IMG/VR virus record: IMGVR_UViG_3300020724_000005 | Length of the DNA: 64,000 nt | From: a virus | Strand: one strand, 5' to 3' | Shown: positions 3,397 to 56,217 of the stretch, in pieces | How the letters are laid out: the number at the start of each line of letters is the position of its first letter | How positions within the stretch are numbered: the stretch's first letter is position 1 | Notes under the pieces: generated by a model | Seen by the model: the letters and a program-made list of their open reading frames with translations, nothing else | The model's database searches: none | Told to the model about the DNA's origin: nothing | Position numbers and translations under genes: made by a program

Positions 3397-4143
3397 TTAA
3401 ACCTTGCTTATTATTATTTTAAAACCTTCATAATTTGACTTTTCTATTTTAGAAGATGTCAATATTATCTCTCTTATTCCAGATCTGATTTTATTCATAT
3501 CTCCAAAATTAATCTTTAACTCTTTCTTTGCTGTTGTTATTTTATCAAATTTCTTTATTAGATCTCCATCTTGATTATATAAATATGCAAATCCTAACCA
3601 TTTATAATTCTTATCTCCTTTTTTACATTCACTCCATTTTTTCCTATATTCTGGATTACTAAGTATATCTTTCATTTTATCTGAGAATTTTTTTAGATTC
3701 TCTTCATTTTTCCAATATGCATCCACTCCATTTTTTACGCTAGTTCTATACTCATCGTCTTTCCATAAATTTTTAGAAATATCAACAAATTTATGTCGTA
3801 AAATATCTTTATTAGTATTTGATGCATTTCGTAATTTTTCTCTATGCTCTTCTTTATTTGGATGATTTGTAAAATTATCTCCACCATCCCCTCCTGTAGA
3901 AATATTATAACCAATTTCTGGATTTGTAGAATTATAATAGCTGATCCAATATTGCTCTTTTATATTTAATTCCTCAATAGAAGAGCTATGATCTAATACG
4001 CCCTTTTTGAACTTATCTCGACCATAGCTCTTTATAGCATCTTTTATTTTTACTCCAGATCCAAGATAGCTTGGATCATTTTTTGTGTCTTTACCTATAT
4101 AAATTTTTCCTGATTCTAAATTTGTAGTCTTATAAATTATCAT
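3397..4143 (-). CDS. GIY-YIG homing endonuclease (free-standing)
   Basis: N-terminus MIIYKTTNLESGKIYIGKDT...YLGSG; conserved EQYW and GYNISTGG. The insert is very AT-rich compared with its neighbours. Confidence 0.85.
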   Translation of the reverse strand: MIIYKTTNLESGKIYIGKDTKNDPSYLGSGVKIKDAIKSYGRDKFKKGVLDHSSSIEELNIKEQYWISYYNSTNPEIGYNISTGGDGGDNFTNHPNKEEHREKLRNASNTNKDILRHKFVDISKNLWKDDEYRTSVKNGVDAYWKNEENLKKFSDKMKDILSNPEYRKKWSECKKGDKNYKWLGFAYLYNQDGDLIKKFDKITTAKKELKINFGDMNKIRSGIREIILTSSKIEKSNYEGFKIIISKV

Positions 4144-4172
4144 AAGGTCTTTATAATAAATATGCGGACCTT
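4144..4172 (-). promoter_or_regulatory. hairpin abutting the HEG start codon, with the motif in its loop
   Basis: AAGGTC (4144..4149) pairs with GACCTT (4167..4172). The 17-nt loop contains ATAAATAT (4156..4163). In the transcript sense the 3' arm touches ATG 4143. Confidence 0.45.
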
Positions 4173-4188
4173 GTGTAATTCAGTTAAT

Positions 4189-4872
4189 TTATATATTAAT
4201 TTCACAACTATTTCCAGCACACGCAACTTGGTCCTTAAGGTCTGTGTTGTCTTCTGCCTCTACCACCAAGCTCAGATCTATGTTAGAAAGCGACTCCATC
4301 ATTTTTTCGTAAGTCTCTTTATCGCAGTCTTGGAAAGGTGCCTGAACGTAGGTGTGGTCTGAGAATGGCAGCACTGAAAGCCCGTTGTAGCAAGTCCTGT
4401 TCTCCCACATCCACTCTCCTACAGTGTCCCACTCTCCGTCCTTTATAGAGATCGTGGCCGAGATGTTGTGTGTGTTCTGTCCTGTCTTGTGTCCTGGTTT
4501 GATCCAGTTGTTGTAGAAGTATTTTACCCTCTCGAGCAGATCTATCGCTGACTCTGTCCTCAGTATCGAACCCTCTGGCGCTTTCTGTGGGACCGAGATG
4601 ACTGCCGTGCTGTGGGGCTTGAAGTACTCGTCCTGTATCAGCTCTGGGTGGTATATGCTCAGGTACGTGTATATGGCCTCGTTCTTGCCAACTCTTATGT
4701 TTCTGATGTAGTACTCGCTGTGCCACGCATGTATGCCAGAAGATGTGCCCAGGACTAGAGAGGAGGTATTATGAACCACAGATTTATTTTTTAGTTGATA
4801 TGAATGAGTATTATCTACTTCTATGTCAACAGTAAATTTATTTCCAGACTTTGTTATTTTTTTAATTTTCAT
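4189..4872 (-). CDS. nrdJ: ribonucleotide reductase class II, C-terminal fragment preceded by a split-intein C-fragment (35 aa)
   Basis: MKIKKITKSGNKFTVDIEVDNTHSYQLKNKSVVHN then T(+1)SSLVLGTSSGIHAWHSEYYIRNIRV. Intein blocks F and G end in HN. The extein continues the RNR motif KPSG|TSS. Confidence 0.85.
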   Translation of the reverse strand: MKIKKITKSGNKFTVDIEVDNTHSYQLKNKSVVHNTSSLVLGTSSGIHAWHSEYYIRNIRVGKNEAIYTYLSIYHPELIQDEYFKPHSTAVISVPQKAPEGSILRTESAIDLLERVKYFYNNWIKPGHKTGQNTHNISATISIKDGEWDTVGEWMWENRTCYNGLSVLPFSDHTYVQAPFQDCDKETYEKMMESLSNIDLSLVVEAEDNTDLKDQVACAGNSCEINI

Positions 4873-6007
4873 AATATTTAATTAATTCTATTATATTTTC
4901 TAATACTAATTGCTTATTTTTTAAATAATTTGATTCTTTAACTCTAATTAAATTTAATCCCATATTAGCATATATCTTATCCTTTAATCTATCTCTCTCT
5001 ATATTATTAGGTAAAGAATGCCAATAATCTCCATCAAATTCAATTACAGTATTTCCTATTTTAATGTCTGGTACTATACACTTTATTTGATAATCATTCT
5101 GGTTTAGATTTATAAAATAGGGTTTTGTTATTGGGTAACCAAAAAATACCTCTTTTTGTTTATTGTTTAATAAATCATATAGTGATAAATTAAAATCTTT
5201 TTCTATATTTGAACTAAAATCTGGAAAATAACTAATTTTCTTTTTTATCATATCAGAATATAAATTCCGACCCTCTACTTCTCCAAATTTATCTATATAA
5301 TATTCTAATCTTCCAGATTTTCCTTTACTATAACATAATTCTTTATATCTATTTAAGCCTTCAATTTTTCCAAATTTAGAGATATAATAGTCTTTAGTCT
5401 GTGAATATGCTATTTTTTTATTAGCCTCATCATATTTTTCCTTTCCTATATTATCACCATACTTTTTTATATAATAATCTAACCCTCTTGATTGATTCTT
5501 ATTAACAAACTGTTTAGCTTCTAATTCACTTACTCCATAATATTTCATTACAGATTTATAATCTCTACAAGAATACCCACTGTCTATTTTCTTTTTATAT
5601 CTTAATCTACCCTCTTTTTCTCCATATTTTTTTATCATGCTTTCCAAGTCAGTCTTTGAATTAATAGAGTGTTTTGCTTTAATGTCTTTTATTTCATCAT
5701 CACTATATCCATTTAATTTTAAAGCATTTATACTAACTGAAAGTTTACTATTTTTTTCTAAATATTCCTCTCTACCTAACTCCTCCCCGTATCTTTTAAT
5801 GAATCCATTTAGGGTATTTTTAAACTTATCATTTTCTATTTTTTGTTTATATTTAAATAAGCCTAACTCTTTTCCGTATTTAAACTGTAATACTTTTAAA
5901 GAAGACCCTCGCATTAAATTTGCACATCTCTTGTTGCCCCCCTCTTCTCCAAGTAGATGAATCAGTAGTCGTCTCAGTCTATTAATCTTTTTTATATCTT
6001 TTTTCAC
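4862..6007 (-). CDS. homing endonuclease with a Vsr/DUF559-like nuclease domain (GTG start)
   Basis: The C-terminus reads IEFDGDYWHSLPNNIERDRLKDKIYANMGLNLIRV. About seven KYG-x-x-x-G-x-x-x-Y repeats lie upstream. It is very AT-rich and sits between the two nrdJ halves. Confidence 0.7.
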   Translation of the reverse strand: MKKDIKKINRLRRLLIHLLGEEGGNKRCANLMRGSSLKVLQFKYGKELGLFKYKQKIENDKFKNTLNGFIKRYGEELGREEYLEKNSKLSVSINALKLNGYSDDEIKDIKAKHSINSKTDLESMIKKYGEKEGRLRYKKKIDSGYSCRDYKSVMKYYGVSELEAKQFVNKNQSRGLDYYIKKYGDNIGKEKYDEANKKIAYSQTKDYYISKFGKIEGLNRYKELCYSKGKSGRLEYYIDKFGEVEGRNLYSDMIKKKISYFPDFSSNIEKDFNLSLYDLLNNKQKEVFFGYPITKPYFINLNQNDYQIKCIVPDIKIGNTVIEFDGDYWHSLPNNIERDRLKDKIYANMGLNLIRVKESNYLKNKQLVLENIIELIKYYEN

Positions 6008-6008
6008 A

Positions 6009-6058
6009 ATTAAGCCTTTTATTATAAATATCTGATTAATTACAATAATAGGCTTAAT
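6009..6058 (-). promoter_or_regulatory. 9-bp hairpin abutting the HEG start, with the motif in its loop
   Basis: ATTAAGCCT (6009..6017) pairs with AGGCTTAAT (6050..6058). The loop contains ATAAATATC (6024..6032). In the transcript sense the 3' arm ends 1 nt before GTG 6007. Confidence 0.45.
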
Positions 6059-6071
6059 AGTAAAAATTAAT

Positions 6072-7682
6072 CTAATAATTTATAATATCATCATCATCCT
6101 TCAATTCGTCTGCTCTAACCCACCCCCTATTTTTAGTTAAAAACCTATGATTTGCTGTAACTGTAACTACCAAACCATCTTCAAACTCCACATCAAACGT
6201 TTCTTCTACTCCATTAATGTATAATTTATTAATTTGTTGCCATTCATCATTTAAATCTTTGACTTTTATATCCTCTGTTACTTCTAAAAATAGCTTTTCG
6301 TTATTTTTAAAATCAGATAAGTCATATCCATTGATTTTAAAAATATCCTCTAATGAGAGAATACCTTTATTTGTTATTATTTCAGTTTCTGGTATCATGC
6401 ACCCACTCGGTTTTATTGTAGTGCAACGGGCTGCTGCGTTTATCCCTACCGCTTTCGCTACTGCTGCGTTCGTCTCTTTCACTATGAGAGCGGCCTTTTT
6501 AAGATCCAGCTTCTGAGCAACTCCTGACCCTATTCCAGTCATTCCTACTCCTATTAGTGCTTCTTTCTCTGTAGTCTTCTGCCATATTGGTCTGAGATAG
6601 TGAAAGTTAGTGTATCCTGCTTGTAAAGTCCCTATTATCGCTGCTGCATTTACTCTGTCATTAAGATCTTCTTGGTCTACTACGTCTGAAACATTTACCT
6701 CGCAAAGGTTGCAAAATTGATATGGTCTTAGTGCAATTTCCATACAAGGATTACTTCCTAAATCTTTATCATTACTAAGAAATATACCCGGTTCTCCTGA
6801 TCCCGAGTTCTCAATCTTCTTCCAGAGATCCATAAAGAATTCCTTTGTAAGTCTATTCCTTAAAAGTACAGCCGAGTTATTCGCTCTACCCCTTTGCGGA
6901 TTTAATTCCCACCATTGACCAGTCTTACAAGAGATCATATCCTCATCGTCAGCTGAGAATAGTGATACTAATGCCGCTCTCCTTATACCCCCAGCAAGTA
7001 CTGCATCAGCTATGTGGCAGACCATGTCGTGAACCTCTATCGAGCTGAGTTTATCTCCATCCTCTTTCTGGCTGAGTATTCCATCTAACATTAGTAAGCA
7101 CTCTTTCAGTGGTTGAGGACCTGGAGCTTTACCGCCAGAAGTAACTAGCATTGCTCCTTTTGGACGTATGTCAGAGAAGTCAAAGTTAATCGATGATCCA
7201 CCTCTGAAATAGGACTTGATCAGGGCTTTGACTGCGTCTGCCCAACCCTCTATCGAGTCTCCTATCAGGAACCTTGTGTGCTTCTTTGGGTTCGGTTTCC
7301 TTATCTCTGGCAGCTTCTCAACGTGGTGCTTCTGTACAGAGAAACCTACTCCCGTGCCACCAAGCAGCAGGAACATCGTCTCAGAGAAAGCGTGTATGTC
7401 GTCTATAGGAAGGTACGCGCAGTTATACACTCTGTTAGGAGATATCTCTATCGACTTTCCACCGAACTGCAGGCTCCTCATAGAAGGAAGCACCTTTTTA
7501 TCATATACGAATTCATAAGCCCAGTCTATCTCAGCTTGCATATTGGGATATTTCTTGAGATGCATTGCCTTGTTTCTGTCTACCAATTCTTCCCAAGACT
7601 CTCTCTTCTGTAGTTCTGGGAGGTATTTGGAATATTTTAAGTGTACTGTAATATCTGATAATATTTCCTGTGAGATATTCAT
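6072..7682 (-). CDS. nrdJ: ribonucleotide reductase class II, N-terminal fragment fused to a split-intein N-fragment (109 aa)
   Basis: RNR-like body (SLQFGG, NPCMEIAL, TTIKPSG) followed by CMIPETEIITNKG...TANHRFLT...IINY and a stop. Confidence 0.85.
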   Translation of the reverse strand: MNISQEILSDITVHLKYSKYLPELQKRESWEELVDRNKAMHLKKYPNMQAEIDWAYEFVYDKKVLPSMRSLQFGGKSIEISPNRVYNCAYLPIDDIHAFSETMFLLLGGTGVGFSVQKHHVEKLPEIRKPNPKKHTRFLIGDSIEGWADAVKALIKSYFRGGSSINFDFSDIRPKGAMLVTSGGKAPGPQPLKECLLMLDGILSQKEDGDKLSSIEVHDMVCHIADAVLAGGIRRAALVSLFSADDEDMISCKTGQWWELNPQRGRANNSAVLLRNRLTKEFFMDLWKKIENSGSGEPGIFLSNDKDLGSNPCMEIALRPYQFCNLCEVNVSDVVDQEDLNDRVNAAAIIGTLQAGYTNFHYLRPIWQKTTEKEALIGVGMTGIGSGVAQKLDLKKAALIVKETNAAVAKAVGINAAARCTTIKPSGCMIPETEIITNKGILSLEDIFKINGYDLSDFKNNEKLFLEVTEDIKVKDLNDEWQQINKLYINGVEETFDVEFEDGLVVTVTANHRFLTKNRGWVRADELKDDDDIINY

Positions 7683-7761
7683 TTCTGTTAAAGTTTTGAG
7701 AATAGTTTATAACTTGGGCCCTGAGATGGGTCCATCAGTTTGATCTTAGTGGTGTGTGATG

Positions 7762-7962
7762 TTACTTACCTGGGATGGTAGTGTTGCCTGAAGCAGCTGG
7801 AGTTGTACTCTGCATGCTCTTCAGCTTTATTGTGTTTGTTCCCTTTTGGTTAGTAGAGTTGAGAGCTGCGATGCTATCGTTGTACTTGTCAAGAGATTGA
7901 GTGGTTCTGTAACCGTCTCCCTTTATCGCTTTATTGAACAAGTCTATTAGAAAGTTTGCCAT
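7762..7962 (-). CDS. hypothetical small protein
   Basis: 66-aa track ORF with a motif copy 27 nt upstream. Confidence 0.4.
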   Translation of the reverse strand: MANFLIDLFNKAIKGDGYRTTQSLDKYNDSIAALNSTNQKGTNTIKLKSMQSTTPAASGNTTIPGK

Positions 7963-7989
7963 GTGTATTGTTATGTTTTCTTCGTATCA

Positions 7990-7997
7990 ATAAATAT
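7990..7997 (-). promoter_or_regulatory. GATATTTAT(A/T)A-type motif copy
   Basis: ATAAATATC on the plus strand, 27 nt upstream of ATG 7962. Confidence 0.4.
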
Positions 7998-8014
7998 CTG
8001 AGTCGAGAGAGAAA

Positions 8015-9400
8015 TTACTTGGAAAGTTCAAAGAATTTCTTACTCAGTATGGATTTCTCTTCAAAAGTCAGACTAGAGCTGTTAGAGGTTTTGAAAGCGT
8101 TGTTCGTAGCTGCCTGCATTGCGTGTATCTCTTCTTCTGTTAGCTCTGTCTCATCTATCTTTATCGTACCGTTGTCCGTGTCGATCATCGCATTGTACGT
8201 CATACCGTCTTGTCCATATCGATTTTTCATGATGTGCACTCTACCTGTCTTGTTGAGTTTGTCTGCTCTCTTTCTGGACAGAGACAGTATGAAGTCTGCG
8301 ATCATGATCTTGTTGTACGATCCTGCTGCCTTGTCACCTTCTACGATGTCATCCTTTGCCCCAGCCCTGTTCACCTGAGACACAGACCATACGGGAATGT
8401 TCAGCTCTCTTGCCATGCCTTTCACCGCGGTGTACACGTCATCTATCTCGTCCTTTACTTCTCCTCCGACCCTTTTTGACTTCAATAGGTCTATGTAGTC
8501 GATGATGATCAGATCAGGTTTGTGTCCCATGTCGGTGCACTTCCTTATGTGAGACTCTATCTTGTTGACTGTGGTCTTGCCCATTGGGAACTCAGCTATC
8601 GTCAGTCTGCCTGGTAAGTTTGCTACTGTCTCTTCTACCTTGCTACGATGCAGGTGGACTTCCTTGAAACCTATGCCGGTGAACACAGAATCGTACCTCT
8701 TGCCTGTGTAGATGTCTGAGAGCTCTAGCGTGTAGTGGTTGACAGTGAGCGCCTGCTTGACTGCCTCAGCTCCTATGTTGACCAGAAACCAAGACTTGCC
8801 TGAGCCTGGTCCTCCGAATATTATGCCAAGGTCTCCTCTTCCAAGTCCTCCCATGAGATGATCGCTTATCTTTGGCCATGGAGTAGGCACTGCCCTTCTG
8901 TCGTCTTCTCTGTACCTCTGCTCTATGTCTTGCAAATACTCGTGTCCTACGTTCTTGTCTGCACCGGCTTTTAACGCAGAATCTATCATGATCCTTATGT
9001 CTTCAAACTGGCCTTTGGAAAGCAGATCTACGGAATTGAGTAGCGCCTTCTTTAATTGCTGGTTCTTGCAGAAGCTTGAGAACTCCAGTTCTATGTACTC
9101 CTTGTCTTCGTTCGCCGTCTTTAACGCCTCTTTCAACTGCTCTGCTACCGAGACCCTGAGGACCTCGTTGTCTATCTTTTTGACTTCTATCTGAAGATAT
9201 TCTAGTGACGGTGTGGTATGATATTTGTAATAATACTTTAGAATGTCTTTGACTATCCACTGTGACGCCGGCGAATCGAACATCTCTGGCTCTACAACGT
9301 CGTGTATCGTCTGTAGGAACTCTTTATGACGTAAAAGTGAAGCAAGAACTTTTATTTGAAATCCACTTCCATACGCGTTGAGCGTGTTTAATTGTGCCAT
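8015..9400 (-). CDS. replicative DNA helicase (DnaB / T4 gp41-like)
   Basis: Walker A GGPGSGKSWFL, Walker B LIIIDYIDLL, and SQVNRAG. I chose ATG 9400 (MAQLNTLNAYG) so the gene does not overlap the upstream HEG. Confidence 0.85.
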   Translation of the reverse strand: MAQLNTLNAYGSGFQIKVLASLLRHKEFLQTIHDVVEPEMFDSPASQWIVKDILKYYYKYHTTPSLEYLQIEVKKIDNEVLRVSVAEQLKEALKTANEDKEYIELEFSSFCKNQQLKKALLNSVDLLSKGQFEDIRIMIDSALKAGADKNVGHEYLQDIEQRYREDDRRAVPTPWPKISDHLMGGLGRGDLGIIFGGPGSGKSWFLVNIGAEAVKQALTVNHYTLELSDIYTGKRYDSVFTGIGFKEVHLHRSKVEETVANLPGRLTIAEFPMGKTTVNKIESHIRKCTDMGHKPDLIIIDYIDLLKSKRVGGEVKDEIDDVYTAVKGMARELNIPVWSVSQVNRAGAKDDIVEGDKAAGSYNKIMIADFILSLSRKRADKLNKTGRVHIMKNRYGQDGMTYNAMIDTDNGTIKIDETELTEEEIHAMQAATNNAFKTSNSSSLTFEEKSILSKKFFELSK

Positions 9401-9407
9401 AACTTTA

Positions 9408-10127
9408 TTATATATTTGGTTTTTTATATTTGCACTTATCAAAATGCCACTGAGTCATTCCGTTATTTCCTCCAATTTTATTACAATGCGGACATTGTAT
9501 TTTTGGATTTTTTATTCCTAATCTATTAGTATTTCCTATTTTAGATATGCTCAATTTTCTTTTATGTTCTTCTGATTTAGATTTTCCCTTAAGAGCTCTG
9601 CTAATATTTGCCTTCTCTAATTCTGATTTTACTCTATTTTTTTGACCTTTAGAAATTGATTCTCTATGTTGTAAAGATAAACATATCCCTAATTTAGATT
9701 TTCTTATATTTAATTTAGTTTCTTCTGATCTTACTTTTCCCGTATTCGATTCTTTCATCTTTTTTTTAGTATCATCAGAAACTAAATGGCCTTTTCTGGA
9801 TAATCTATATAATCGTTTTGTTTCTTCAGAATGTTTAAAACCAAATTGACCTTGTCCACCATCTGTCATATTAACTAAAGGTCCCAATTTAAGATCTGCT
9901 CTTCCATAGAATATAATCCAAAATTTTTCTTTTTCACAGGCTTCTTCCCAAGTTAACCATTCTTCTGACATAATTTCTACTTTATATTCTGTAAGATTAA
10001 TCACATTATTCCAATGAATATTTCTGTTCTTTTTTGAATAAGATCTTTTATAGTTTTTATCTGATCCTATTCCTATATAAAAAACCTCATTCTTGTCTAG
10101 TCTTATATGACGATACACATATGCCAT
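9408..10127 (-). CDS. GIY-YIG homing endonuclease with NUMOD3-like repeats and a C-terminal CPHC zinc finger
   Basis: MAYVYRHIRLDKNEVFYIGIGSD; repeats HSEETKRLY, SDDTKKKMK, SEETKLNIR, SEEHKRKLS; C-terminus CPHCNKIGGNNGMTQWHFDKCKYK. AT-rich. Confidence 0.85.
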   Translation of the reverse strand: MAYVYRHIRLDKNEVFYIGIGSDKNYKRSYSKKNRNIHWNNVINLTEYKVEIMSEEWLTWEEACEKEKFWIIFYGRADLKLGPLVNMTDGGQGQFGFKHSEETKRLYRLSRKGHLVSDDTKKKMKESNTGKVRSEETKLNIRKSKLGICLSLQHRESISKGQKNRVKSELEKANISRALKGKSKSEEHKRKLSISKIGNTNRLGIKNPKIQCPHCNKIGGNNGMTQWHFDKCKYKKPNI

Positions 10128-10137
10128 AAAATAAAAA

Positions 10138-10232
10138 TGGTCCAAAGTGACAAAGAGCCTGCATGCTCTCTATCTCAAAGGACCAATAAGTTCTATTATA
10201 GATAACTCATGCAGGAGCTTCTATCTATAATA
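10138..10232 (-). promoter_or_regulatory. structured HEG leader (copy 1): two hairpins with complementary loops enclosed by a long-range helix
   Basis: Hairpin S1 pairs 10194..10204 with 10222..10232. Its loop CTGCAT is complementary to loop ATGCAG of hairpin 2 (stem 10154..10158 with 10165..10169). The outer helix pairs TGGTCC (10138..10143) with GGACCA (10180..10185). Confidence 0.6.
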
Positions 10233-11279: not shown

Positions 11280-11843
11280 TTAATTTTTATATTTACAATT
11301 ATCAAAATGCCACTGGATCATATTACTCTTATTTGCTATTTTTTTACAATGCGGACATTGGGCCAAAGGCCTATTTTTAGCAGATTCACTTTGTGCAATT
11401 TTAGTTTTTTCTGATGTTTTTAATTCTTTATTCCACGTATTCATTCCAATGAAAAATGATCCTGAATTTACTTTATGTGGAAATTTTTTATCTTTATTCC
11501 ATGGAATTCTATTTTTAATACTTTCAATATAGCATTGTTTAGCTTCTACTGATATTCTTATACTATGTCTACCTGTATTTTTATCTTTAATGCACATTAA
11601 ATGAAAAGCATATGTTAATTTTTTATTTTCAGGAAAACTTCTATGTAATAACCAGTGCGCTAATATATGCTCTCTAATAGTTAATAAAACTATATTTTTA
11701 TTGTTTGTATTTCTTCTATCACCAATTCCTCCCAAACATATTGGCACTATGTGATGAGACTCGTAATAAACCTCTTTATTTTTTGTTCTTTTCTCCAATT
11801 TACATTTGCAGACTAATCTATTATATATTTTTAAGTAATCCAT
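11280..11843 (-). CDS. HNH homing endonuclease with a C-terminal CPHC zinc finger
   Basis: MDYLKIYNRL...YYESHHIVPICLGG...NIVLLTIREHILAHWLL; C-terminus CPHCKKIANKSNMIQWHFDNCKYKN. I chose ATG 11843 by analogy with the paralogue at 45814. Confidence 0.85.
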   Translation of the reverse strand: MDYLKIYNRLVCKCKLEKRTKNKEVYYESHHIVPICLGGIGDRRNTNNKNIVLLTIREHILAHWLLHRSFPENKKLTYAFHLMCIKDKNTGRHSIRISVEAKQCYIESIKNRIPWNKDKKFPHKVNSGSFFIGMNTWNKELKTSEKTKIAQSESAKNRPLAQCPHCKKIANKSNMIQWHFDNCKYKN

Positions 11844-11852
11844 AAAATAAAA

Positions 11853-11953
11853 TGGACTCATTGAAGTCAAAGGTCGGGCAATGACCAATGATTCTAGAGT
11901 CCAATAAGTTTATTATAGATAGTTAATTGCCCTAACTTTCTATCTATAATAAA
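11853..11953 (-). promoter_or_regulatory. structured HEG leader (copy 2)
   Basis: Hairpin S1 pairs 11909..11922 with 11940..11953 (14 bp). Its loop GGGCAAT is complementary to loop ATTGCCC of hairpin 2 (stem 11872..11875 with 11883..11886). The outer helix pairs TGGACTC (11853..11859) with GAGTCCA (11897..11903). Confidence 0.6.
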
Positions 11954-50256: not shown

Positions 50257-53200
50257 TTATTCTTTGATGTTTCTTTCATCTAAAAGCCCACCTGTTTCAC
50301 TTTGGTTCTCAAACAGGGACACCTTCTTGCCCGCAAACATCTTTGCCATGCTGTCTTTATTCTGAAGATACACCGCTTTAGTGCTTTCAAAGCTCAATGG
50401 TCCACCTTTATATTCTACCTTATCTTCTCCGCGTTCCATGCTAGATCCCATTCCTTTTCTGCCTATTGGATCTCTACCAAACGCACTTTTGTCAGTTCCG
50501 ATGATCGATTTGTACTTTTCAGGCCTTCCTGGCATCTTCACTGGCTCATTAGGATTTGTTTCGTTGTAGCCGTCTGGAACGTCTAAGGTAGGTTTTCCGC
50601 CGTACAGTCCTGCTATCTGGGAAGGAGTTCCGTATGCTGTGCCTGACTCTAGAGGATCGTTTCCTTCTGTCTCTATCTGATCGTATCTGAATTTGTTCTT
50701 TTGGTCTTCGATGATCATGTCTTGGAGCTCACCAAACGAATCAGGAGAAAGGTGGAATATGTTTTCCCAGATGTACTCTTTAGGAAGTATCGCTCCTTCA
50801 ACAGCTTGAGTTGCCAGATCGATCTTCTCTTTGAACATCGCTATCCTCTCCTGGTCGTATATGATGGACGGATTTGTCAGGCTCAGGGTGAAGTTTGCCA
50901 TGCCTTCGTCTGTGTATCCGTTTGCATATAGATGAACTAGAGCTATCTTCTTGAGCTCTGATACTATGATCCTCTGCAGTCTTTCTACAGTACGAGCAAA
51001 CCTGATGTCTTCTGCCGCGAGGGTAGCTTTACCTGTGAGGTCTTTTTCGTATCCCATGAACGCCTTTGGTATCTTCAACGCTGCGAATAGCTTTTCTCTA
51101 AAGTATATGACGTCTTCTATCGCATTGTACTCCAGGCCTTTCGCCGTATCTATCCTTGTAGACGTATCATTGCCTCTTACAGGAACTATGAAGTCTTCTA
51201 GTAGGTTCTGTTGGTTGTACTTTAGGTTGTATTGTCCTGTGTTAGGATCGATCAATGGAGTCTTCTTCATCTTGTTGATCATCCTCTGAACGTAGTTCTC
51301 TACCTCGTTTGGTGGTATCGCTCCAACGTTCGTGTAGAATATCCTTCTCTCTGGGGCACGAGTGATCCTATGGATCAACATGGCATCTTCTATGAGCGTA
51401 TACTGTTTAAACAGCTTTCTTGCTGGCTCTAGGTATGATCTGCCATAGGGAAGATAGTTGACGTCTCCAATGAGCCTGAAATGTGCCATCTCGTAGTTAT
51501 CAAACCACACTCCTGGGTCTTGGTTGTTGAAAGCCGAAGTGTATCCAGATGTTGCTGCCAATGCTGCGTTAGGATCAAACTTGAATCTCACCTCATTAGG
51601 GTTGTTCGGGTTGTATCCTTCCTGGCGCACTATGTTGTATGCTGAAAATGGAATTACATTATACACGCCAAATTTATCAGAGATCTCCATCTTTAAGTAG
51701 AAGTCCCCGTACTTGCACATGTTTCTTATCCAAGACCATAGATTGAACTCTATGTTGAGCACTGAGTAGAATAGGTTTTCTAAGATCTTCTGTATGTTTT
51801 CGTCTGAAGACCTTATAGTCAGTACTTGACCCTGTTCATTTTTGAGTGTACAATTGTGTGTATATATCTTAGACCCGTCTTTAGCCTCTATAGCAAATAT
51901 GTGATTGTCTCCTGCATTTACTATGTCATAAACATCTTCATATCCGCATTCTTCTATTGATACAACTTTATGATTAGATGATTTTGCAAAATCTTCTAAA
52001 GTTGAATATCCATTACCCAACACTATTCTTCTCAACTTATTGATAGTAATAGAATTACTATTACAAAAATCTGATACTAAAAATCTCTTTCCCTCTTTGT
52101 AAGTATTATTGCAATATGACCTAAATTTAATTATAGTATCAGTGCTATGGTTAGAAAGTATTTTATTTATTAGGGTTTTAGTATTATTACACTTATACAC
52201 AGCAAAGAGATCTCTAATTATTTTTCTCCACTCAAATGTTATAATATTAAGTTCTTTTTGTATATCTCCTAAAATATTTTTGTGGGGATCATTTTTTATT
52301 CTATCTATTATATATGCTAAGTTTATAGATTTTTTTCTAGTAGTTTGTGTATTATATCTACCATTTTTTTCTTTTGAAATTTTATATCCTTTTCCATACA
52401 TTCCATTTTTAGATCCACGGTGTCCATATACGATTTTTCTTTCTTCTGAACTCAAATTTTCCATGTAACTTTTCATGGAATCTGATTTCTTTTTCAAAAA
52501 AGACTGCTTATCTACATTTTCCCAAAAATGTTTTTGTCCTTCCATTAATTTTACGTAGTAATCATTTTTTTTGGGCGGATCTGAATTTATACTAACCCAA
52601 AGGTTTTTATTATATTCAGCATGAATTTTATTATGCTCATTCCATCCTACCCACTTTAGAAAATTAGGATTATTATTTCTTTTATCAAAAGAGTCATGGT
52701 GTACTACTGGTTTTTCTTTTGCTGGAATCTGATTCCTCTGTTCTTTTAAAAATGTAACCTGATTTGCTACTATCCTATGAGTATATTCGAATTTATCCCC
52801 ACTCCATATTTTTTCATATCCAGGCATGCTAGTTCCTTCTGATATTTTAGTAGAAAGAGCTAATATACTAGTACTAATTTTTATGTCACTAGTAGTTATT
52901 TGAGATCCACTGCTATCTATCCAAATATGATTAGATGTAGCTTTTACTTCAGTTCCATCATCGAAGGTTATTTTATATACCCTTTTCTTCCCATTATAGG
53001 CCACTTTTTCAGCTTTTACTGGACGGAATTCATTAGTTTTTTCATCTAAACCATATATCCATATGTCTTTTGCTCCTGAGTCGTGCAATTCTTTTATGGT
53101 CTTCTTAGTTCCATCTAAAAGAGGTATAACTGTATCTGCTCCAAGACATTCATCCGCTATAATATCCAATGCTGAAGCTATGATTGCATCTGTATCCATA

Positions 53201-53457
53201 GAATCATAATCAGCGTAGATCTGTACTCTCGCTGACTGATAGTTCATCGCCAGATTCAGGTTGACACCATACGCAGTAGAGGTGGTATAAACTTTGTGGA
53301 ACCTATCAATAAGAGAATTAGTCTGAATAACACCATTGGATTGGATATTATCTGTATCCATGACCGAAAGCATATTGCCCCCATCATTGCGGATAATAAC
53401 GTCCGTACTAAATAGTCTGCGGAGTGTAGAAAATAAATTCTGTTGTATTTCTGCCAT
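50257..53457 (-). CDS. portal protein (T4 gp20-like) interrupted by a 432-aa intein
   Basis: The extein parts YADYDSMDTDAIIASALDIIADE and CTLKNEQGQVLTIRS...LWSWIRNMCKYGDFYLK are gp20-like. The gene is adjacent to the terminase. Confidence 0.8.
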   Translation of the reverse strand: MAEIQQNLFSTLRRLFSTDVIIRNDGGNMLSVMDTDNIQSNGVIQTNSLIDRFHKVYTTSTAYGVNLNLAMNYQSARVQIYADYDSMDTDAIIASALDIIADECLGADTVIPLLDGTKKTIKELHDSGAKDIWIYGLDEKTNEFRPVKAEKVAYNGKKRVYKITFDDGTEVKATSNHIWIDSSGSQITTSDIKISTSILALSTKISEGTSMPGYEKIWSGDKFEYTHRIVANQVTFLKEQRNQIPAKEKPVVHHDSFDKRNNNPNFLKWVGWNEHNKIHAEYNKNLWVSINSDPPKKNDYYVKLMEGQKHFWENVDKQSFLKKKSDSMKSYMENLSSEERKIVYGHRGSKNGMYGKGYKISKEKNGRYNTQTTRKKSINLAYIIDRIKNDPHKNILGDIQKELNIITFEWRKIIRDLFAVYKCNNTKTLINKILSNHSTDTIIKFRSYCNNTYKEGKRFLVSDFCNSNSITINKLRRIVLGNGYSTLEDFAKSSNHKVVSIEECGYEDVYDIVNAGDNHIFAIEAKDGSKIYTHNCTLKNEQGQVLTIRSSDENIQKILENLFYSVLNIEFNLWSWIRNMCKYGDFYLKMEISDKFGVYNVIPFSAYNIVRQEGYNPNNPNEVRFKFDPNAALAATSGYTSAFNNQDPGVWFDNYEMAHFRLIGDVNYLPYGRSYLEPARKLFKQYTLIEDAMLIHRITRAPERRIFYTNVGAIPPNEVENYVQRMINKMKKTPLIDPNTGQYNLKYNQQNLLEDFIVPVRGNDTSTRIDTAKGLEYNAIEDVIYFREKLFAALKIPKAFMGYEKDLTGKATLAAEDIRFARTVERLQRIIVSELKKIALVHLYANGYTDEGMANFTLSLTNPSIIYDQERIAMFKEKIDLATQAVEGAILPKEYIWENIFHLSPDSFGELQDMIIEDQKNKFRYDQIETEGNDPLESGTAYGTPSQIAGLYGGKPTLDVPDGYNETNPNEPVKMPGRPEKYKSIIGTDKSAFGRDPIGRKGMGSSMERGEDKVEYKGGPLSFESTKAVYLQNKDSMAKMFAGKKVSLFENQSETGGLLDERNIKE
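51853..53148 (-). mobile_element. contiguous intein with an HNH endonuclease domain in the portal gene
   Basis: It starts CLGADTVIPLLDG (Cys codon 53146..53148), has block B ATSNHIW and an HNH region VVHHDSFDKRNNNPNFLKWVGWNEHNKIH, and ends VYDIVNAGDNHIFAI...IYTHN followed by C+1 (51850..51852). The core is AT-rich. Confidence 0.85.
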
Positions 53458-53467
53458 ATTTTATTTT

Positions 53468-54895
53468 TTATCCCAATAGCCAATTCAGATCCTCTATAGT
53501 ATTTCCATTTACTGTAGTGATCTCCATTTGATATGGATTATTATTTATAAAGTTATTTGTATTGTAAACTGGGGATTCTCCCATCTTCTTCATCCCGTCT
53601 AATGTAGCATATGTTAAACTCTCTGCCGTCCTTCTGAATCTTATAGAAGAGTCTCTCATATACATCGATATCGCAAAAGACATCACAAGGTCATCATTGT
53701 ATCCTTGCATTGCTTGTGGTTTTGAGTTCTTCCATATGAACACTCTCAATTCTTCTAAAAGCCTAAGTGATCTTATCTTTACTTGCTTTGTCTCTATGAA
53801 GTCTCTCATCCTCTCTATAATAAGAGGTCTTGATGCTGACGACATAGTGAATCCAGGAACTAATGAGTCTGTTGCTCCGTATCTTTCAAGCCTCTTCTCA
53901 TTGTCTAAACTAAAATCTGTCCTATGCGAGTAGTGTAGGTTACTGTAACCGCTCTCGATCAAAGTCTGAAGAACGTCCCAACCTATGTTTGCATTCTCCA
54001 CAGCGACCAAGGCATTGTTGTACTCGAAAGCCGCTGCCAGTATTGTCTTTGCAAACTCTCTGGTGTCGCACTGGGCTTGGTATTCTGCTACCTGGGTCAA
54101 TGTATCTACGTCTATGATGTGGAACGCGGAATAGTCAGCTCCGTCTCCTCTTGCTACGTCTGCACATAACAGATAGGTTTTTAGAGGGCTTGGGTACTCC
54201 CATATCCACATTGCCTTATCGAGTCCCCTTCTTTCGATAGGCTCTAAGACCATGTTTTCTTCATACCAACTTAGTATGTCTGGGATGATGACAGTATTAC
54301 CCGATGAACTAAAGTCACAATCACACTCTTGCGCAGCCATTCTAACTCCAAGGTCTTGATCTTGTCTATCTCTCCAAGGTTGACTTCTTTCTGGGTGTAC
54401 TGTCCAAGGAAGTGATACTGGTACAAAGCTGTTTTCTTTTTTCTGCGCTTTTATATATGTTTTGTGGAACCAATTACCTACGCCGTTTGGAGTCGATAAT
54501 GCTATACATTTACCACCGGTTGCCAAGGTTTGCTGAGCAGAACCAAAAAGATCCTCTGCATTATCTATGAAAGCGCAATTATGACTAACTACATCATTTG
54601 TATAATATTCGTTTTTATTCTTTACGTTTACTAAATCATAAACTTCGAATTCTTCTTCTATAATATCAATAGAAATAATAGAAATATTCCCAAATAGTAT
54701 ATCGCCTACTCTCAATAAACACGCTTCTAGAAACTCACCATTTGGAAATTTAAGACAATGCCCCTCTGTACACTTTATAAAAGAATTATTTGATAATTTT
54801 ATATGAAAAATGATATTAGTAATCTTTGATAAAATTCCATCAAAATCACTAAACCCGGTTGGAGTTAAAATTTCATATTTAGTATTTTTTATCAT
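53468..54895 (-). CDS. terL: large terminase C-terminal fragment preceded by a 106-aa split-intein C-fragment
   Basis: MIKNTKYEILTPTGF...CTEGHCLKF (block B)...EVYDLVNVKNKNEYYTNDVVSHN, then C+1 AFIDNAEDLF, which completes the gp17-like MDE|CAFI Walker B region. A nuclease domain follows. Confidence 0.85.
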   Translation of the reverse strand: MIKNTKYEILTPTGFSDFDGILSKITNIIFHIKLSNNSFIKCTEGHCLKFPNGEFLEACLLRVGDILFGNISIISIDIIEEEFEVYDLVNVKNKNEYYTNDVVSHNCAFIDNAEDLFGSAQQTLATGGKCIALSTPNGVGNWFHKTYIKAQKKENSFVPVSLPWTVHPERSQPWRDRQDQDLGVRMAAQECDCDFSSSGNTVIIPDILSWYEENMVLEPIERRGLDKAMWIWEYPSPLKTYLLCADVARGDGADYSAFHIIDVDTLTQVAEYQAQCDTREFAKTILAAAFEYNNALVAVENANIGWDVLQTLIESGYSNLHYSHRTDFSLDNEKRLERYGATDSLVPGFTMSSASRPLIIERMRDFIETKQVKIRSLRLLEELRVFIWKNSKPQAMQGYNDDLVMSFAISMYMRDSSIRFRRTAESLTYATLDGMKKMGESPVYNTNNFINNNPYQMEITTVNGNTIEDLNWLLG

Positions 54896-55599
54896 TTTAA
54901 AAATTGTCTCATCGATTTTAATAACTGGGGTTGTTCTTCATAATTAATCATATTCGCATTTTTCTTAAACCAACTATCTGAAATTATTACCATTTTATAA
55001 GAATTATCTTTACACCATGATAATGCGCTTTTAAATTTAATTATATTTTTAGGATCCGATTTTAATTTTGATGGTTTTATTTCATATAAAATTTTTTTGT
55101 CAAAATCAACGAAATCTACTATATAAGATGATACTTTATTTTGATATTCATATTGTATTCTTACTTTTTCGTAGTCTAGATGTTGATTTAATAGAAAAAA
55201 TACAGCTTCCCAATTACTTCTGAATTTTTTTATGTCATCTTTAATTTTAATATAGCTTTTCCAATTTGTCCAACTATTAGTTATGCATGGCGTAAATTTA
55301 CCTTCTTTTATAAGTCTCTTTAATCTTATTGAATTCTGTCTTCGTGCTTCTATTACTCTAGGACTACTCTTAATCTTTTCTTTATGTTCCTGTGTCGATA
55401 CAGTTTTTTTATTTGATTCTACTCTTTTTCTTTTTGTTTCTTCTGAATCTTTATGGTGATTATGTGAAGTCCAACATGGTTGAGTACAGTATTTTTTATT
55501 TTCTTTTTTTGTTAAATATCTCTTTCCACATCCGGAACATTCTTTTTCTATAGGTTCTTTCCAATTCCACGAGTGTTTTTTAATATTCTCTATAAACAT
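54892..55599 (-). CDS. homing endonuclease with an N-terminal zinc finger and a PD-(D/E)xK-like C-terminal domain
   Basis: CSGCGKRY...YCTQPCW; NUMOD3-like HKDSEETKRKRVES; C-terminus YIVDFVDFDKKILYEIKPSKL. It is very AT-rich, and its ATGA overlaps the IntC start. Confidence 0.65.
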   Translation of the reverse strand: MFIENIKKHSWNWKEPIEKECSGCGKRYLTKKENKKYCTQPCWTSHNHHKDSEETKRKRVESNKKTVSTQEHKEKIKSSPRVIEARRQNSIRLKRLIKEGKFTPCITNSWTNWKSYIKIKDDIKKFRSNWEAVFFLLNQHLDYEKVRIQYEYQNKVSSYIVDFVDFDKKILYEIKPSKLKSDPKNIIKFKSALSWCKDNSYKMVIISDSWFKKNANMINYEEQPQLLKSMRQFLK

Positions 55600-55610
55600 T
55601 TGCTTTTACT

Positions 55611-55618
55611 ATAAATAT
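55611..55618 (-). promoter_or_regulatory. GATATTTAT(A/T)A-type motif copy
   Basis: ATAAATATC, 11 nt upstream of the HEG ATG 55599. It overlaps the stop of the terL N fragment. Confidence 0.4.
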
Positions 55619-56217
55619 CAATAATGTCCAGATAATTTATTTTTTAATTCATTTATTGTTGTCTTTTCTATTTCGCCAGTATTTTTATTCTTAATTAATA
55701 TTTCAGTATCTCCAGTTACACATTCATCCATCACAAGAAGAGATACTGCTTCAGAACGAGCTGAGTCGCTTGCTCCTGACACTGCCTTTATCTGAGAACC
55801 GTTTGTGAGTCGTAAACTTAGCCTGTTGTCTTCAGTAGCTCCTATCTTCAACCAAGCTGGAAGGTTATCGTATGCAAATCGTACCTTTGTGACCATATTC
55901 TTGGCCGTCTCTTGCTTTGTTGCTATGACCAGTACGTTCTTATCTTTGTGGAATACCATGAGCCAGAGCGCATAAGCAGACACCAACGTTGATATCCCCA
56001 GCTGTCTTGACTTGTTTATTATTACATTTTGGTCTCCTGAAAAGACCTTTAGCATGGATTCTTGGAATGGGTATAGATCAAAGAGCATCCTGCCTCTTTG
56101 AGGGTGTTGGATCATGTAATACTTCTTCATGAAATATACCGGGTCTGTGGCGCATTTCACAAATTCTTCTCGTATCTTATCTTTGATAGTGGATTGCCTC
56201 GTAATCGGTTCGGGCAT
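55618..56217 (-). CDS. terL: large terminase N-terminal fragment (ATPase Walker A/B) fused to a 34-aa split-intein N-fragment
   Basis: KSRQLGISTL (Walker A) and LLVMDE (Walker B), followed by CVTGDTEILIKNK...SGHY and a stop. Confidence 0.85.
   Translation of the reverse strand: MPEPITRQSTIKDKIREEFVKCATDPVYFMKKYYMIQHPQRGRMLFDLYPFQESMLKVFSGDQNVIINKSRQLGISTLVSAYALWLMVFHKDKNVLVIATKQETAKNMVTKVRFAYDNLPAWLKIGATEDNRLSLRLTNGSQIKAVSGASDSARSEAVSLLVMDECVTGDTEILIKNKNTGEIEKTTINELKNKLSGHY

Follow-up and report, generated by a model that had tools for sequence, protein, structure and literature searches.

The window analysed here, the whole 64,000-nt stretch of the IMG/VR virus record IMGVR_UViG_3300020724_000005, carries a class II ribonucleotide reductase (RNR) gene, nrdJ, that is fractured into two open reading frames (ORFs) with a third between them. 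We put at roughly 85% the probability that the interruption is a cassette of a split intein and a homing endonuclease gene (HEG) in a phage nrdJ, the reductase being restored by protein trans-splicing and the cassette spread by homing. The first ORF encodes the N-extein and the N-terminal intein half (IntN), the free-standing HEG follows, and the last ORF encodes the C-terminal intein half (IntC) and the C-extein (Table 1). The cassette IntN-spacer-HEG-IntC measures 1,634 bp (6401..4768) and is sited in the codons of the KPSG|T loop. A preliminary description, made from the letters alone, had drawn this three-part layout, and every coordinate and length in it was reproduced by ORF listing and translation, down to the 11 nt shared by the HEG and IntC ORFs (4862-4872).

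The locus is not a chance pattern, because the intein halves match inteins in both sequence and fold, the HEG has matches of its own, and the arrangement recurs in independent assemblies. The same three-ORF order was assembled independently in several metagenomes (L001-L003), and 58 blocks of the collection contain the identical C-half protein. As the preliminary description recognised, the arrangement is that of the fractured genes reported by Dassa, London, Stoddard, Schueler-Furman & Pietrokovski (2009, Nucleic Acids Research (NAR) 37:2560; PMC2677866), which include NrdJ-1 and NrdJ-2; its label 'marine' was not strictly right, the published NrdJ loci being from the freshwater Lake Gatun. 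Beyond the single locus, we tentatively propose, at odds that we see as close to but short of even, an undescribed and very abundant Cys1/Thr+1 NrdJ split-intein allele at KPSG|T, with relatives at every stage of the cycle, some of them in three pieces.

The host ribonucleotide reductase

Joined to each other, the exteins form a 619-aa class II RNR. Residues 1-617 of this spliced protein were aligned by tblastn, in one piece and at 66.9% identity, with the nrdJ of Microcystis phage Mel-JY01, which is uninterrupted and shares with the window the order exonuclease-helicase-nrdJ. In the global alignment the junction was crossed without a gap (window ...TTIKPSG|TSSLVLGTSSGIHAW and Mel-JY01 ...TTIKPAG|TTSLTLGCSSGIHAW), which places it exactly at KPSG|TSS, as originally proposed. 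The nearest solved structure is that of RTPR, the monomeric class II RNR from L. leichmannii (1l1l, E 5.6e-39), whose TTVKPSGT aligns with TTIKPSGT of the window, KPSGT being conserved. Removal of the insertion thus restores a host protein that is colinear with both Mel-JY01 NrdJ and 1l1l.

Alignment to 1l1l revealed that the window NrdJ retains the thiyl-radical NPC-x-E motif (GSNPCMEIAL), the Cys that follows it and the C-terminal Cys pair. With its NPC-x-E motif, redox Cys, KPSGT loop and C-terminal Cys pair and the domains PF02867 and PF21995, the enzyme is, judged by its sequence, a class II RNR of the monomeric kind (NrdJm). The N-half contains the thiyl-radical Cys and the C-half the C-terminal Cys pair, so that each half by itself is incomplete as an enzyme. 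NPC occupies residues 311-313, and the intein follows residue 427, 114 residues downstream. A megablast search of 50,697 phage records with this region returned no match and tblastn was needed, so that by this measure no cultured phage appears to be a near relative.

The intein halves

A phmmer search of the PDB with the fused halves identified the NrdJ-1 intein 8ubs (E 1.3e-6), followed by the Ssp DnaB and Npu DnaE inteins. The AlphaFold2 (AF2) model of the fused halves, for which split and contiguous relatives formed the input alignment, reached a predicted local distance difference test (pLDDT) score of 96 and a predicted template-modelling score (pTM) of 0.89. With this model, Foldseek gave 66 matches in the PDB at E<=1e-3; of these, the 50 listed were nearly all inteins at prob 1.0, led by 8ubs (E 1.6e-8), Ssp DnaB and Npu DnaE (template-modelling (TM) score 0.75-0.77), all at prob 1.0.

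Relatives were collected with each half. The exhaustive IntN search returned 729 representatives at E<=1e-3 and 102 at E<=1e-10 (50%-identity clusters), and 92 of the best 150 matches were N-halves ending in an IntN directly after KPSG, KPAG, KPEG, APTG or similar. Among the top 120 C-half relatives, 40 bear an IntC. Block A of the window intein reads CMIPETEIIT with Cys1, and in 82 of the 92 family IntN a Cys likewise begins the intein directly after xPxG. Block B is T82-A-N-H85, within TANHRFLT (residues 82-89), which had been placed inside IntN from the outset; TxxH is present in 87 of the 92. In IntC, block F is TVDIEVDNTH (Asp16, His23) and block G is VVHN, with the penultimate His and terminal Asn, and His-Asn|Thr was found in all 40 IntC-bearing homologs. 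In fused-intein numbering, C1, T82, H85, D125, H143 and N144 are invariant in nine split or contiguous relatives. The preliminary description was right to name Thr+1 as the nucleophile; since this residue is the invariant Thr of the host motif in 40/40 members, it is a property of the allele and is not peculiar to this locus.

The IntN sequence runs CMIPETEIIT...TANHRFLTKNRGWVRADELKDDDDIINY and then stops, and that of IntC is MKIKKITKSGNKFTVDIEVDNTHSYQLKNKSVVHN. The net charge of IntN is -13, with the acidic tail DELKDDDDIINY, and the first 13 residues of IntC, with the basic N-terminus MKIKKITKSGNK, sum to +5. IntN stops after residue 109 and IntC has a Met start; contiguous relatives bridge this point with a linker of 8-10 aa. 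From the sequence matches, the HINT model, the conserved residues and the charge polarity, the element is identified as an intein of class 1 whose split, between blocks B and F, is at the canonical position, in agreement with the preliminary description.

The homing endonuclease

Against Pfam, the HEG matched PF18741 (REase_MTES_1575) at 35.8 bits. Many of its homologs carry PF04480 (DUF559) together with PF18741, and some are named Vsr endonucleases by the Joint Genome Institute (JGI). When a profile of 46 homologs was searched against the PDB, I-Bth0305I (3r3p) was the best match (E 1.9e-6), followed by the DUF559 structure 3hrl; Vsr itself was weak (E 0.75). The AF2 model (pLDDT 90) likewise retrieved 3r3p in Foldseek (prob 0.99, TM 0.62-0.64). 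The composite EDxHD motif of I-Bth0305I was defined by Taylor et al. 2011 (PMC3239194). Its residues are all kept in the window HEG (D314, E323, D325, H330, D339); E323, H330 and D339 are invariant in the family, whose 46 homologs have D314 in 45 cases and D325 in 39. The C-terminal domain is thus, on profile and model, an EDxHD/Vsr-like nuclease, which bears out the Vsr/DUF559-like assignment made at first reading.

The N-terminal ~260 residues (window 6007..5230) form eight tandem helix-pair repeats in the AF2 model, and seven of the eight carry the motif L..YI.KYG.E.G...Y. Residues 1-280 matched no NUMOD or other Pfam family even at E<=10, in libraries without a NUMOD2 model, and the eight-repeat region had no significant PDB match in Foldseek. 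This region is predicted to bind DNA, and its repeats may be a modular DNA-binding array. The homolog in a related locus (L008) has fewer KYG-type motifs, about five by eye.

Two other leads were rejected. A phmmer search of the PDB with the single HEG sequence matched only designed pentatricopeptide (PPR) repeats, and these matches were spurious; the family profile reached 3r3p. A group I intron or other structured RNA as the intervening element was sought in Rfam at E<=1, which gave only a chance match to a small nucleolar RNA.

Mobility of and selection on the cassette

The cassette differs from its host gene in composition. IntN has a GC content of 0.28, the spacer 0.16, the HEG 0.25 and IntC 0.22, compared with 0.43 and 0.49 in the exteins, and the contrast is sharper at third codon positions (GC3). 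Identity and substitution rates were measured against L010, a related phage from another metagenome with the same cassette. Nucleotide identity was 0.90 for IntN, 0.91 for the spacer, 0.91 for the HEG and 0.97 for IntC, and only 0.74 and 0.715 in the adjoining exteins, the fall occurring ~30 nt outside each splice junction. Synonymous divergence (dS) was 0.10-0.40 in the cassette; for the middle extein it was 2.3, and for the remaining two extein segments it was too saturated to compute. The high identity and low dS of the cassette between diverged exteins indicate that it was transferred horizontally as one unit and that this happened after the host genes had diverged. The ratio of nonsynonymous to synonymous divergence (dN/dS) was 0.126 (IntN), 0.166 (HEG) and 0.115 (IntC), which indicates that all three are under purifying selection and that the cassette is a functional unit.

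An empty KPSG|T site was found in 77 of the 80 closest IMG/VR nrdJ loci (the best 80 of ~570). Reconstructed for the window, this site reads ...AAACCGAGTGGG|ACCTCCTCTCTA..., also given as GGGATAAACGCAGCAGCCCGTTGCACTACAATAAAACCGAGTGGG|ACCTCCTCTCTAGTCCTGGGCACATC.

Hairpin and octamer motif

A hairpin (Table 1) is formed by the 64-nt spacer together with the initial codons of the HEG, and none of 200 shuffled sequences matched it in stability. It pairs the AGG of a putative ribosome-binding site (RBS; aaaagg, 6020..6015) and the GTG start (6007..6005), and it is conserved in L010 (z -5.8) despite changes in the 5' arm. Inside the hairpin, at 6030..6023, lies the octamer TATTTATA, which the window contains, often as gaTATTTATAa, in 16 copies on the gene (minus) strand and in 20 when both strands are counted, where 4.35 would be expected. 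Of the 16 gene-strand copies, 14 stand 4-35 nt upstream of an ATG or GTG, and the motif also precedes the L008 HEG and a further HEG in the window's terminase gene, terL. We consider TATTTATA to be probably the promoter element of this phage.

A T4-type late promoter was examined as the identity of the motif and rejected. TATTTATA is the reverse complement of the T4 late-promoter consensus TATAAATA, which is enriched in the window and lies opposite to the genes, an orientation opposite to that in T4; the element is therefore termed only a promoter-like motif. Scans of 4000-8100 for sigma-70 promoters and terminators gave no more than shuffled sequences did.

For the fractured genes of Dassa et al. 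2009 (PMC2677866), hairpins were reported in 15 of the 16 leaders of HEGs, and in 15 loci the HEG was reported to overlap IntC by 6-69 bp. That paper ties these hairpins to mobE of phage Aeh1, in which a promoter within the hairpin relieves sequestration of the RBS. By analogy, the same logic would fit the window hairpin and its embedded motif.

Related loci and abundance of the allele

Relatives of the window locus differ in what occupies KPSG|T. In some, contiguous mini-inteins of 149-154 aa (P0274 type) are found at the same site, and in L016 an intact HEG of the same family lies between the halves. The HEG of L008 (4012..5004) is diverged, with IIQYNGDFWH where the family has IIEFDGDYWH, so that both acidic residues are replaced (Q-Y-N-G for E-F-D-G); this HEG may encode an endonuclease that has lost catalysis and yet been kept in place. 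L012 belongs to the window cassette lineage and bears a clean 957-bp deletion, equivalent to window 6026..5070, that takes the 3' arm of the hairpin, the start codon and about 313 HEG codons. In L006/L007 an 80-nt spacer still codes for the last 27 residues of an L008-type HEG (E 1.4e-11), and L005 and L082 are HEG-less, with spacers of 53-86 nt. Read from these sequences, the series is the full succession that Dassa et al. proposed, from mini-intein through HEG invasion to HEG loss that leaves a split intein.

A separate intein occupies a further site, NPC|C, in L005, L009 and L010. The two sites are distinct by sequence, because L009 has NPC|C occupied and KPSG|T empty, and both are occupied in L005 (1992..4859) and L010 (1552..5819). 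These two loci are three-piece nrdJ genes with two different split inteins, in which the middle piece consists of IntC(1), 114 aa of extein and IntN(2). Site 1 of L010 retains a 99-aa remnant of a PD-(D/E)xK nuclease (E 2.4e-10 against a 273-aa ORF of L009). No natural three-piece split-intein gene was found in the literature searched. Nor was any description of the KPSG|T allele found in the searchable literature, peptide motifs included, a coverage that is incomplete and leaves the InBase registry outside it.

Proposed mechanism and alternative explanations

We hypothesize that two polypeptides are made, N-extein-IntN of 536 aa and IntC-C-extein of 227 aa, and that the acidic IntN and basic IntC associate into one HINT domain. 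Class 1 trans-splicing would begin with an N-S acyl shift at Cys1, assisted by T82 and H85. The acyl group would be transesterified to the Thr+1 hydroxyl, Asn35 would cyclise with the aid of His34 and of Asp16 and His23 of block F, and an O-N shift would restore the KPSG-TSS peptide bond and an active 619-aa NrdJ. The HEG would cut the cassette-less nrdJ of co-infecting phages, and recombinational repair would copy the whole cassette (homing); the horizontal transfer seen across the entire cassette lends the cleavage step indirect support. We infer splicing, HEG cleavage and the HEG target from sequence and structural models. Translation of the HEG is probably held down by the hairpin, which buries the RBS and the GTG start, and the promoter-like motif inside it would yield transcripts that escape the hairpin, a regulatory role suggested by analogy.

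Several observations weigh against this explanation. Both Pfam matches fall just short of their gathering thresholds, the HEG with PF18741 below 38.2 bits and the intein with PF14890 at 31.2 bits, where the threshold is 35.8. As a nucleophile, Thr+1 is weaker than Cys or Ser, and no characterised naturally split Cys1/Thr+1 intein was found in the literature searched. The ~30 nt of high identity on the extein side of the junctions may stem from conservation of the motif instead of being a co-conversion tract. No hairpin is present upstream of the related L008 HEG or of the terL HEG of the window, nor upstream of the L009 nuclease. Finally, the IntC ORF has no obvious Shine-Dalgarno sequence and starts inside an HEG ORF whose translation is supposedly repressed, so that the mechanism does not account for production of the C-half in step with the N-half.

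Three other explanations were weighed. The HEG could instead target an nrdJ that already bears an HEG-less intein, either a mini-intein or a split one, and insert only itself at the split point. We regard this as unlikely, though it deserves serious consideration: the model of Dassa et al. 2009 (PMC2677866) explicitly places the HEG integration point inside the intein-coding region, and possible targets exist in the 149-154-aa mini-inteins and the HEG-less split loci L005, L006/L007 and L082. However, the HEG-less loci examined are deletion derivatives with remnants of the HEG 3' end rather than naive targets, and the 77 empty sites among the 80 close relatives speak against this explanation as well. 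Moreover, the identity between the window and L010 is uniform at 0.90-0.97 over IntN, spacer, HEG and IntC and drops to ~0.7 only beyond the junctions with the exteins, the pattern to be expected from entry of the whole cassette into an empty site.

The two NrdJ fragments might also assemble non-covalently, the intein halves serving merely as a dimerisation handle with no splicing. A precedent is the HEG-split NrdA of Aeromonas phage Aeh1, which is reported to work without ligation (PMC3045599); the poor nucleophilicity of Thr+1 would also favour such an arrangement. We nevertheless consider it highly improbable, as C1, TxxH, the block F Asp and His, His-Asn and Thr+1 are retained across highly diverged homologs under purifying selection, and a 144-aa HINT domain would stay lodged in the conserved KPSG|T loop. 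This loop presumably binds the substrate phosphates of the RNR. Equally little credence is given to decay, that is, to a non-functional nrdJ or an inactive relic of the HEG. HEG decay does occur in the lineage (the deletion in L012, the 27 codons in L006, Q-Y-N-G in L008), but all three ORFs of the window are intact, the EDxHD residues are present, dN/dS lies at 0.12-0.17 and the C-half protein is identical in its 58 blocks.

Genomic context and other mobile elements

The window is part of a ~157-kb metagenomic myovirus contig that codes for a tail sheath, for a major head protein and for a T4-like portal. Its capsid protein shares 52% identity with the one from Flavobacterium phage immuto and 47% with the Mel-JY01 protein. 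The phage context seen at first reading is thus upheld by structural genes of a myovirus and by a replication module. HEGs abound in the genome, and two further intein elements lie in terL and the portal gene.

A second fractured gene was observed in the terminase large subunit (terL, window 56217..53468, minus strand; Table 1), where ORF475 and ORF235 overlap by 4 nt. We take its intein to resemble the atypically split AceL-TerL/GOS-TerL type. The T4-like portal gene (gp20, PF07230) holds a contiguous 432-aa intein at 53148..51853 (minus strand) within the ORF 53457..50257. Its junctions are IIADE|CLGADTVIPLLDG and KIYTHN|CTLKNE, block B is TSNH, an HNH-like motif lies inside, and its GC content is 0.29 compared with 0.39-0.44 in the exteins.

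Three more AT-rich free-standing HEGs are situated between replication genes, at 4143..3397, 10145..9408 and 11888..11280 (minus strand). The first two match homing-endonuclease families in PHROGs, the second also NUMOD3, and they are weakly assigned to the GIY-YIG type; the third is of the HNH type. The HEG at 4143..3397 sits immediately downstream of the nrdJ C-half; a related locus carrying P0002 lacks it.

Table 1. Positions of the split nrdJ locus, the terL elements and copies of the octamer in the window.
Feature	Position	Strand	Details
nrdJ N-half ORF	7682..6072	-	536 aa = N-extein 427 aa + IntN 109 aa (ORF listing, translation)
nrdJ N-extein, aa 1-427	6402..7682	-	class II RNR with RNR-II insertion domain; PF02867, PF21995; ends TTIKPSG; GC 0.433
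IntN, 109 aa	6075..6401	-	CMIPETEI...DDDDIINY; stop codon 6074..6072; GC 0.281, GC3 0.21
RNA hairpin in IntN-HEG spacer	5996..6071	-	dG -23.6 kcal/mol, z -5.9
Free-standing HEG, 381 aa	4862..6007	-	GTG start; PF18741 35.8 bits; GC 0.246
nrdJ C-half ORF	4872..4189	-	227 aa = IntC 35 aa + C-extein 192 aa
IntC, 35 aa	4768..4872	-	MKIKK...SVVHN; blocks F and G; GC 0.219
nrdJ C-extein, 192 aa + stop	4189..4767	-	starts TSSLVLGTSSG, Thr+1 TSSLVLGTSSGIHAW; ends ACAGNSCEINI; GC 0.486
ORF199, TerL N-part + 34-aa IntN	56217..55618	-	Terminase_6N, Walker B LLVMDE; IntN CVTGDTEILIKNKN...SGHY, then stop
ORF235, free-standing PD-(D/E)xK-like nuclease	55599..54892	-	AT-rich (GC 0.26); TATTTATA upstream
ORF475, ~106-aa IntC + TerL C-part	54895..53468	-	block B CTEGH, block F, block G VVSHN|C
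TATAAATA, examples	3386, 6023, 14420, 27216, 55610, 56230, 62503	+	

Significance

Fractured genes are the proposed missing link between contiguous and naturally split inteins, and split inteins derived from them (gp41-1, NrdJ-1, IMPDH-1) became standard tools of protein engineering. Here one gene family offers a dense natural series in which mini-inteins, cassettes that are intact, an HEG deletion of 957 bp and remnants of 53-86 nt share the same site, and the order of events is therefore directly testable. If our tentative proposal of an undescribed, very abundant allele is true, the series would be a natural test of the model that HEG invasion creates split inteins. It could also provide a Thr+1 split intein orthogonal to NrdJ-1; such orthogonality of the KPSG|T intein to the NrdJ-1-site intein is suggested because both coexist naturally in one polypeptide chain. 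The eight-repeat helical array would be an unstudied DNA-recognition module. Surveys of viromes with nrdJ as marker will meet 225-aa and 536-aa 'fragments' that are halves of one enzyme. The arrangement itself will not surprise specialists; its usefulness as a system comes from an abundant allele, a complete decay series and relatives in three pieces.

Comparison with known systems

Like the Npu and Ssp DnaE split inteins, the window intein is split at the canonical position, shares the fold at TM 0.75-0.77 and is predicted to follow class 1 chemistry with Cys1. The DnaE fragments measure about 102 and 36 aa, compared with 109 and 35 aa in the window, and DnaE uses Cys+1. The DnaE halves are encoded at separate genomic loci of a cellular host with no HEG between them, whereas the window locus belongs to a phage.

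The prototype of the EDxHD family is I-Bth0305I (Taylor et al. 2011, PMC3239194; PDB 3r3p). As in this enzyme, a Vsr-like nuclease with E/D/H/D forms the C-terminal part of the window HEG, and the presumed DNA-binding region is N-terminal to it. I-Bth0305I resides in a group I intron of recA and has two NUMOD2 motifs, whereas the window HEG is free-standing between intein halves and has ~260 aa of helix-pair repeats instead.

The nrdA of phage Aeh1 (Friedrich/Gibb & Edgell; Crona et al. 2011, PMC3045599) is likewise reported to be a phage RNR gene split by a free-standing HEG, mobE, that overlaps the downstream fragment. As cited by Dassa et al., mobE also has a hairpin with an embedded promoter-type motif, which in Aeh1 governs HEG translation. 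Aeh1 has no intein and its fragments are reported to assemble non-covalently, whereas complete intein halves flank the HEG of the window.

The closest parallels are NrdJ-1 and NrdJ-2 of Dassa et al., in which, as in the window, N-part plus IntN, a free-standing HEG and IntC plus C-part lie on one strand, the host enzyme is a class II RNR and the context is that of a phage. The published fractured genes also share a hairpin in the 5' untranslated region of the HEG and an HEG 3' end that overlaps IntC, by 11 nt in the window and by 6-69 bp in the published loci; the motif embedded in the hairpin differs, the gene strand of the window reading TATTTATA and not TATAAATA. An acidic IntN with a basic IntC is common to the window and NrdJ-1, a polarity reported by Dassa et al. 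(PMC2677866). The two inteins are 27% identical, with ...TKNRGWVRADELKDDDD in the window and ...TKNRGYVRADELTDDDE in NrdJ-1. NrdJ-1 uses Ser at +1, where the window intein has Thr. The KPSG|T allele is also set apart by its great abundance and by related loci in which the HEG is intact, truncated or deleted. The NrdJ-1/NrdJ-2 site lies one residue after the NrdA point, at NPC|, beside the thiyl-radical Cys, whereas that of the window, KPSG|T, is 114 residues downstream. The window intein thus does not belong to the NrdJ-1/NrdJ-2 allele, and its relatives L005 and L010 differ further from those loci in holding both sites at once. Together, these sequence comparisons indicate an arrangement known since 2009, the insertion site and Thr+1 being what is new.

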